From the IMG/VR virus record IMGVR_UViG_2541047938_000006: a stretch of 64,000 bases of DNA; one strand, written 5' to 3'. Of this stretch, positions 2,657-3,320 are shown one piece after another (position 1 is the first letter of the stretch; every line of letters begins with the position of its first letter). Below the pieces are notes generated by a model. It was not told the origin of the DNA. It saw only the letters and a program-made list of their open reading frames with translations, and ran no database searches. The translations under genes were made by a program, and so were the position numbers. This stretch comes from a virus. Lineage: Duplodnaviria > Heunggongvirae > Uroviricota > Caudoviricetes.

Positions 2657-3292
2657 ATGACCAGTCAACTCATCCCCGTATTCAACGGTTCTATCTCAAA
2701 CCAAGCAGCCCTTCTATGCAATGCTCGCAATCTACACGCTTTCCTTGGGGTTGGTAAACGCTTTGCATCGTGGATAACAGAACGTATTGCTGAATATGGT
2801 TTCGTTGAAAATCAGGACTATATGATTGCTTCCCAAATTCGGGAAGCAAAAGGTAGAGGCGGTCACAACCGCAAGGAATACCACCTCACCCTCGACACAG
2901 CCAAAGAGCTTGCGATGGTTGAACGTAACGAAAAAGGTCGCCAGATCCGCCGCTACTTCATCGAGTGCGAAAAGAAACTTCGCAACATTCAGCCAGTACA
3001 AGCAGAACCACAGCCGCAATTCACAGCCGAGGAAATCATCCTCCTTTGCTACATGCAGCTCTGGATGGAAAAAGCCCAGGACCTCAGCAAACACCTGTAT
3101 CCCATCATGAAAGAGCTGAACTCCTCATACACGAACAAGCTGTATGACATTGCGTTTGAGACCATCTACATGGTGACGAAGAACAGAGATGCGTTACTGA
3201 GGGAAGTAACACGTCTCGACATGTCAAGTTCCGTTATCCAGCGGGCCATGCCAATGCTGAAAAGCCTGCGGGCAAGACAATTTGAATTCTGA
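2657..3292 (+). CDS. Phage antirepressor (AntA-type N-terminal domain + KilA-C-type C-terminal domain)
   Basis: 211-aa ORF with RBS AAGGAGG 6 nt upstream; C-terminal ~110 aa nearly identical to C-terminus of ORF 49222..49896. Confidence 0.65.
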   Translation: MTSQLIPVFNGSISNQAALLCNARNLHAFLGVGKRFASWITERIAEYGFVENQDYMIASQIREAKGRGGHNRKEYHLTLDTAKELAMVERNEKGRQIRRYFIECEKKLRNIQPVQAEPQPQFTAEEIILLCYMQLWMEKAQDLSKHLYPIMKELNSSYTNKLYDIAFETIYMVTKNRDALLREVTRLDMSSSVIQRAMPMLKSLRARQFEF

Positions 3293-3296
3293 AACC

Positions 3297-3320
3297 AAAG
3301 GAGCTTCGGCTCCTTTTTTC
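3297..3320 (+). terminator. Intrinsic terminator after antirepressor gene
   Basis: Hairpin GGAGCTTCGGCTCC followed by TTTTTT immediately after stop codon. Confidence 0.6.

Follow-up and report, generated by a model that had tools for sequence, protein, structure and literature searches.

The stretch of DNA analysed here (64,000 nucleotides, referred to below as the window) belongs to a 933W-like, stx-negative lambdoid prophage of E. coli, inserted in ynfG. It contains two antirepressor genes, oppositely oriented and some 46 kb apart, whose 3′ ends are almost the same. How did two such genes of a single prophage come to share this end, and what keeps the copies so similar? The pair could be the substrate of a DNA inversion, an old duplication preserved by selection, or a piece that phages exchange among themselves.

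Geometry and sequence of the inverted repeat

A search of the whole window returned a sole inverted repeat of at least 40 nt, with two arms of 309 nt separated by a spacer of 45,875 nt. Its parts are the following:

3011-3319, plus strand: arm A, made up of the final 93 codons (P22AR_C), the stop codon and the terminator of the AntA-type antirepressor gene (repeat search, alignment)
3297-3319, plus strand: intrinsic-terminator-like hairpin and T-run of arm A (-14.2 kcal/mol, z -3.4)
3320-49194, no strand: inter-arm segment, 45,875 nt (gene content)
49195-49503, minus strand: arm B, the matching 3′ module of the ORF6N-type antirepressor gene (repeat search, alignment)
49195-49217, minus strand: intrinsic-terminator-like hairpin of arm B (terminator scan, folding)

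The arms were reported as 97% complementary by the repeat search. When they were aligned base by base in gene orientation (3011-3319 on the plus strand with 49503-49195 on the minus strand), 8 mismatches and no gaps were found, that is 97.4% identity, with the mismatches at positions 3016, 3031, 3106, 3190, 3194, 3199, 3205 and 3296. Seven of these are synonymous and the eighth falls between the stop codon and the hairpin, so that the C-terminal 93 residues (QPQFTAEEI...LRARQFEF) are identical in both proteins. Downstream of these codons and of the stop codon (3290-3292 in arm A), each arm contains a terminator with a UUCG loop, GGAGC-UUCG-GCUCC followed by U6, with folding energies of -14.2 and -13.7 kcal/mol in the two arms; the copy in arm B was also picked up by the terminator scan. 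Both borders are sharp, similarity dropping to the random level at the linker codons QPQ on the 5′ side and right after the T-run on the 3′ side. As other complete genomes, independent of this one, and an isolated phage have the pair too, it is neither a product of chance nor an assembly artefact, and it appears as an inverted repeat because the two antirepressor genes are oppositely oriented.

An earlier note on this DNA had described an inverted repeat of about 310 bp bracketing about 46 kb. Its coordinates proved right to within 5-20 nt, the two open reading frames (2657..3292 on the plus strand and 49222..49896 on the minus strand) are present exactly as it gave them, and the sharing of 3′ ends, stop codon and terminator hairpin included, was confirmed by the alignment of the arms and by folding. 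Between the arms lie ibrA/ibrB, a Panacea-domain gene, all virion and structural genes, the tail and lysis genes, a Q-like region and the nin genes, as well as a nanS-p esterase gene interrupted by an IS21-family element.

The prophage and its relatives

The left end of the window is occupied by host sequence, and the tyrosine integrase gene sits just past the right end:

18-2117: ynfF
2128-2211: remnant of ynfG

Among isolated phages, Escherichia phage PhiR5_2 (PV340546) comes closest, and both antirepressor genes are found there in the same inverted arrangement. Compared to the prophage of strain SCU-104, the window shows no difference in its first 6 kb (100% identity) and 99.3-99.95% identity overall. 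It is a close relative and not the SCU-104 prophage itself, being distinguished by an additional IS21-family element and by another tail-fibre region. The IS21-family element (41935-44494) interrupts the nanS-p/SASA esterase gene, which lies downstream of the Q region, and is missing from the SCU-104 prophage. Its two genes are:

42128-43669: IstA (rve domain)
43681-44430: IstB

In the tail-fibre gene (26396-27435, minus strand), 13 copies of a degenerate 51-nt unit were found, with spacings that are mostly multiples of 9; they correspond to collagen-like Gly-X-Y repeats, and this region differs from SCU-104. A further member of the family is the stx-negative prophage found at ynfG in HUSEC2011, the O104:H4 outbreak strain, which has the same gene pair (7832-8467 and 48286-48957 of the compared sequence). 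Its two arms are 69% identical, yet their last 48 nt are 100% identical to arm A of the window.

Two antirepressor genes with a common C-terminal domain

The genes that contain the arms have the following organisation:

2657-3292, plus strand: gene 1, 211 aa, AntA (residues 22-91) and P22AR_C (residues 120-180); ortholog of 933W L0142, adjoining attR (Pfam, PHROG)
49222-49896, minus strand: gene 2, 224 aa, ORF6N (residues 12-99) and P22AR_C (residues 130-193); in the nin region, directly upstream of ninB (Pfam, PHROG)

The N-terminal domain of gene 1 matched AntA (PF08346) with 92.4 bits (cutoff 27), and that of gene 2 matched ORF6N (PF10543) with 75.4 bits (cutoff 27.8). The common C-terminal domain matched P22AR_C (PF10548) with 29.6 bits in gene 1 and 31.4 bits in gene 2, the Pfam gathering cutoff being 22.4. 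Both products matched PHROG 377, 'anti-repressor Ant'. A gene 100% identical to gene 1 is present in SCU-104, where RefSeq names it 'antA/AntB antirepressor family protein', and the N-terminal half of gene 2 is about 94% identical in DNA to the ant region of phi24B. The earlier note had seen unrelated N-terminal domains placed on a shared C-terminal domain, which holds for AntA and ORF6N, but the name KilA-C that it gave to the shared part does not: PF03374 (KilA-C/ANT) had no match at E<=0.01 in either protein, and the domain is P22AR-C (PF10548).

Searches of PDB sequences with the antirepressor proteins gave no usable solved relative. An AF2/AlphaFold model of gene 2, built from a 19-sequence alignment, reached a pLDDT of 48, too low for the model to be relied on, and the shared domain may tentatively be drawn as three helices. 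Knocking out the homolog of gene 2 in phi24B, ant, was reported to lower induction efficiency (Fogg et al. 2011, PMC3064807), and by analogy gene 2 may act as a helper in induction, as phi24B Ant reportedly does.

The 5′ part of the antA locus (2657-2925) also varies among relatives. Most siblings have a truncated antA fragment together with a second, complete antA (sibling 3316-4479), and the window has one gene. This single antA corresponds to an in-frame 528-bp deletion between identical 54-bp direct repeats, which joins the N-terminal half of the fragment to the rest of the gene. A single antA gene is also found in 933W and HUSEC2011, so the 528-bp event may have gone in either direction.

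The C-terminal module in other phages

The earlier note had also proposed a modular shuffling of antirepressor domains, and the survey of other phages bore this out, the C-terminal module having AntA, one of two ORF6N variants or Bro-N as its N-terminal partner. The combination of AntA with this module is the architecture of 933W L0142. POCJ13 has a different ORF6N variant joined to the same module as genes 1 and 2, and in phiSTEC1589-Stx1c a gene for ORF6N and the module lies beside one for Bro-N and the module. In phi24B Ant, an ORF6N half of the gene 2 type is joined to another, P22-like P22AR-C domain, with the swap point at the linker 'EDCYFSQ'. The module occurred in 198 of the 5,426 complete E. 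coli genomes, at 295 places and with at most 3 per genome, and in 54 phage records; about 90 of the genomes had two copies or more. When protein sequences were queried with the 93-aa domain, the matches were for the most part truncated, and they added hardly any partner to AntA, ORF6N and Bro-N.

Most of the database proteins matching the shared domain are labelled 'partial' and are far shorter than the two full-length genes. Such entries are probably genes truncated where a contig ends, and the repeat would then seem to break short-read assemblies of E. coli prophages often.

AntA, ORF6N and Bro-N belong to a domain-shuffled 'Bro network' of phage regulators that Iyer, Koonin and Aravind reportedly defined in 2002. 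The present genes resemble this network in that the three N-terminal domains are freely combined with a P22AR-C tail, swaps occurring in the inter-domain linker. They differ in that two members are found in one prophage with a tail 97% identical in DNA, and in that the siblings catch intermediate states of replacement. With P22 Ant and phi24B Ant they have the P22AR-C domain in common, and gene 2 shares the phi24B-type ORF6N domain and the position in the nin region. However, the P22AR-C domain here is of the diverged kind of 933W L0142 (30 bits, compared to 78 bits for phi24B).

In the view of modular evolution, lambdoid phages are mosaics produced by exchange of modules. The window shows the same sharp borders of identity at gene and domain boundaries, and differing immunity regions on near-identical backbones. 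Nothing essential sets it apart, the antirepressor cassette being an instance of this mosaicism.

Arm identity among sibling prophages

Both arms were compared in each member of a sibling set composed of the ynfG prophages of eight complete genomes, PhiR5_2 and SCU-104. The comparison covered about 15 A arms and 12 B arms, and as several A arms were retrieved by means of flank patterns derived from the window, they are biased towards window-like alleles. Identity between the two arms of a same prophage varied widely:

HUSEC2011 (O104:H4): 69%
PhiR5_2, NCTC9112, UPEC-245U: 90.9%
G1/2: 92.6%
SW070917: 95.5%
EC2, DETEC-S792, S1-CAM-02-A, window: 96.1-97.7%

Three allele classes were distinguished at the A locus: 'a', of the 933W L0142 type; 'b', of the type usual at the B locus; and 'c', that of HUSEC2011, whose cassette is 93.5% identical to that of the Bro-N gene of phiSTEC1589. 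In all cassette types, the first ~70 nt and the last ~50 nt are nearly identical.

The differences between prophages were concentrated in the arms. Between the window and NCTC9112, arm A had 25 mismatches over 309 nt, compared to 10 over 2681 nt in the adjoining flank (Fisher p=6e-18), and the whole B locus had none over 3601 nt. The arm that diverged in SW070917 was arm B, with 9 mismatches over 309 nt against 3 over 3292 nt in its flanks (p=4e-8), and 7 of the 9 were 933W-type A-arm alleles. PhiR5_2 has 28 sites at which A and B differ; arm A of the window had the B allele at 22 of them, with an unbroken run of 16 (permutation p=0.017), and it retained A-type alleles at both arm ends (arm positions 6, 21 and 286). 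An exchange in the opposite direction was seen in SW070917 and G1/2, where a-type alleles occupy positions 75-153 of arm B. The divergence of the repeat thus greatly exceeded that of its flanks, and the variant alleles were those of the other locus, in contiguous tracts, which is the pattern by which gene conversion is recognised. Because the differences are concentrated in the arms, and because the variant bases match the paralogous arm or a third cassette type, the 97.4% identity most likely results from recent gene conversion or cassette replacement. The direction in the window is fixed as B to A by the C-terminus of 933W L0142, whose protein sequence matches the 'a' allele without a difference throughout the variable 3′ block (...DVLLREAARLDQSSFVVQRARPML...).

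As to the donor, a b-type cassette is present in cis in the window. The B-arm patch of SW070917 and the c-type of HUSEC2011 need donors from outside the genome. The a-type patch in arm B of SW070917 is lacking from the current A arm of that strain, and this patch without a donor of its own, together with the arrival of the c-type from outside, indicates that exchange with other phages contributes.

Exchange of a 3′ cassette as the probable origin of the repeat

Taken together, we consider it quite probable that the repeat results from ordinary phage module swapping and has been kept similar by patchy recombination acting on an exchangeable cassette. The unit exchanged would be the P22AR-C domain with its stop codon and intrinsic terminator, carried by two antirepressor genes that are otherwise differently built. 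Its conserved ends, namely the first ~70 nt (QPQFTAEEIILLCY..WMEKAQ) and the last ~50 nt (LRARQFEF, stop codon and hairpin), would serve as homology anchors, between which a recombination presumably of the RecA or Red type would replace the interior patch by patch, without crossing-over. In the window, the copy on the attR side would have been recently overwritten by nin-type ('b') sequence. Such overwriting would have raised the identity of the arms from about 91%, the value of siblings with 933W-type alleles, to 97.4%, and would have made the C-terminal domains identical in protein. The donor may have been the cis paralog or else a homologous cassette belonging to a second prophage in that cell. 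For the window, where a b-type donor is present in cis, the paralog is a plausible source.

Could both copies instead have been drawn independently from a pool of phage cassettes, and both be of the b-type by chance, with no exchange within the genome? We regard this as unlikely, even if several observations go in its direction: the third allele at the A locus of HUSEC2011 matches the cassette of a different phage, the patch in arm B of SW070917 is unexplained by its own A arm, E. coli genomes hold up to 3 copies of the cassette, and up to 9 places per genome match a 2.2-kb chimeric junction query, a query that includes the nin region. However, every sibling already has a b-type donor some 40-46 kb away in the same element, and the converted patches are short, keep A-type ends (positions 6, 21 and 286) and lie between flanks 99.6-100% identical, as local conversion predicts. 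Independent acquisition and local conversion differ in the donor only, not in the mechanism. An old duplication maintained by purifying selection alone, without any recombination, might be suggested by the fact that all 7 coding differences between the arms are synonymous, but selection on the protein cannot explain near-identity at synonymous sites and in an untranslated terminator. Nor does it fit the contrast between 8.1% divergence in the A arm and 0.4% in the flanks of the same pair of prophages, or three discrete allele classes at one locus; these last two observations refute it, and we give it practically no credence.

The remaining candidate is a 46-kb inversion in actual use, by which homologous recombination between the arms would turn the prophage on and off, or lock it. 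The earlier note had indeed pointed out that recombination between the arms would invert the late and accessory region. With 309 nt at 97.4% identity, the repeat is an adequate RecA substrate, and the patchy exchange of alleles indicates that recombination does take place, between the arms or between an arm and a related cassette. Inversion is thus possible, but it was unrealised in the data. Among the 5,426 complete E. coli genomes, no record covered the recombinant junction (N-terminal half of AntA, arm and ninB side), the best matches ending at the arm border. Both recombinant junctions, written as flank-N309-flank patterns, were absent from IMG/VR, the JGI metagenomes and the GTDB species representatives, in scans that demanded exact 20-22-nt flank matches and that found the parental junction only 5 times (2 + 3 contigs), a small denominator. 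The order was parental in all ten syntenic prophages and in the viable phage PhiR5_2. No invertase gene was found in or beside the segment in the RefSeq annotation of the near-identical SCU-104 prophage, the sole recombinase being the tyrosine integrase past the end of the window. Finally, the traces left by recombination of the arms are short, non-crossover patches. A switch in regular use is for these reasons very unlikely.

The order of the genes permits some predictions on what an inversion would do. The genes ninB and Q and the late genes would be placed behind the AntA terminator and cut off from pR, and transcripts from pR would run past the ORF6N gene into ibrAB and then antisense into the tail genes. 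Since Q would no longer be made from pR, lytic growth should fail. It is then conceivable, though we think it highly improbable, that crossing-over between the arms occurs in lysogens at a meaningful frequency and flips the 46 kb, giving a reversible, non-inducible subpopulation of 'grounded' prophages, and that the repeat is kept by selection. Were this true, Q and the late operon would be uncoupled from pR, and the repeat would be selected through bet-hedging of the host or the phage, beyond being a by-product of module sharing. Rare inversions in single cells are physically expected, with no sign of their use or persistence. Programmed invertible segments, such as G of Mu, C of P1 and P of e14, measure 2-4 kb and are inverted by the Gin, Cin and Pin invertases at crossover sites of ~26-34 bp. 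The present case is similar in having inverted repeats around a block with tail-fibre genes, and differs by the lack of a serine invertase, by 309-bp coding arms, by a length of 46 kb and by the single orientation seen.

Exchange of the 3′ cassette by patchy recombination is accordingly the reading that we retain. The repeat is a well-documented instance of known phage mosaicism and calls for no new mechanism. What the present analysis adds is the evidence, drawn from comparison of sequences, that a recent conversion probably lies behind the high identity, with siblings that appear to show earlier and intermediate states. It provides a clean and datable example of how a phage regulatory protein may be rebuilt, a cassette made of a domain and a terminator being overwritten in patches, with close relatives that keep the states before, during and after. 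A further consequence is that gene trees of the antirepressors of such phages must be made per domain. At this length the repeat can also cause breaks or wrong joins when 933W-like (Stx-type) prophages are assembled from short reads, so the case is of practical relevance for both the assembly and the phylogeny of Stx-type prophages.

Putative control by C4-type antisense RNAs

Upstream of both antirepressor genes, RNA elements were recognised by models of Rfam:

2528-2616, plus strand: C4-like RNA (Rfam sRNA-Xcc1) in the leader of gene 1 (69.1 bits, cutoff 53)
49950-50034, minus strand: C4 antisense RNA gene, upstream of gene 2 (75.1 bits, cutoff 45)
50061-50148, minus strand: isrK/c4-a1b1 element, with the upstream target copies and a terminator at its end (isrK 75.8 bits, cutoff 50; c4-a1b1 46.9 bits, cutoff 46.7)
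50171-50142, minus strand: promoter-like site preceding the isrK/c4-a1b1 element

In front of gene 1, the RNA loop CTTATTTG is complementary to CAAATAAG, present at 2451-2458 and at 2640-2647, where it overlaps the Shine-Dalgarno sequence. In front of gene 2, GTTTCGA and GTGCTAA of the C4 RNA are complementary to boxes of the leader (from 49914 and 49945) and to upstream boxes (from 50095 and 50110). Each of the boxes TCGAAAC and TTAGCAC is thus present in two copies, one of them upstream and the other in the leader, next to the Shine-Dalgarno sequence. These complementarities are short matches of 7-8 nt, and the boxes are putative targets. The sRNA-Xcc1 family stands outside the Rfam C4 clan; in our reading it resembles the C4 fold, with a long closing stem around two hairpins.

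Given the C4-type RNAs and the duplicated complementary boxes, both genes look like cassettes of the P1 immI type (c4-ant). By analogy, both proteins would act as antirepressors expressed from immI-like cassettes under the control of C4 RNA. The likeness to immI of P1 and P7 (c4 - icd - ant) consists, for gene 2, of C4, c4-a1b1 and isrK models scoring above their gathering thresholds and of duplicated a and b boxes, and, for gene 1, of a C4-like fold (sRNA-Xcc1) with the same box logic. The isrK-orf45-anrP region of Gifsy-1 (PMC4825925) is comparable. Different from P1 immI and Gifsy-1 is the presence here of two independent cassettes, with distinct box sequences, in one prophage. The two immI-like modules, with their different boxes and specificities, extend over 49950-50171 (minus strand) and 2409-2656 (plus strand).

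Other modes of control were considered. Regulation of gene 1 or gene 2 by LexA was rejected, as no LexA/SOS box was found near the promoter of either antirepressor gene. A palindrome at 2606-2628, ACCGCCAG-N7-CTGGCGGT, was considered as a CI operator, a reading discarded because the immunity region contains no further copy of it; more likely the palindrome reflects pairing of the 3′ tail of the C4-like RNA with the leader. Coupling of the cassette allele to the immunity type was also dismissed, an identical B arm being found with lambda cI (PhiR5_2) and with an unrelated, S24-type cI (window). The b-type cassette thus coexists with two unrelated cI genes, and the shared domain does not track the immunity type.

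Other features of the prophage

The repressor gene of the window (55927-56634) codes for a CI protein with an HTH domain and an S24 peptidase domain, unrelated to lambda cI. PhiR5_2 has lambda cI (9824-10537 of the compared sequence), and the DNA flanking the immunity region is 98-99% identical to the window; on these alignments, the difference reads as a classic immunity-module swap.

Accessory genes were found within 3489-5957, 17762-17902 and 50082-50841, and comprise ibrA/ibrB (a PAPS-reductase-like gene and its partner), Panacea/SocA, a Hok/Gef toxin and a HigB/HigA-like pair (Gp49 and HTH). The HigB/HigA-like pair is found immediately upstream of the C4-ant cassette and is encoded on the other strand.

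Direct repeats of 41-49 nt are present at 54178-55108, both within the O-like replication gene and just upstream of it, two of the copies being 100% identical and 90 nt apart. A role as origin iterons is possible. The STnc100 sRNA family is represented by two tandem copies on the minus strand, at 45631-45840 and 46116-46309 (130 and 139 bits). This pair coincides with a family of direct repeats returned by the repeat search of the window, and lies at the site that stx occupies in Stx phages, with the Q-like gene on one side and the esterase gene on the other.
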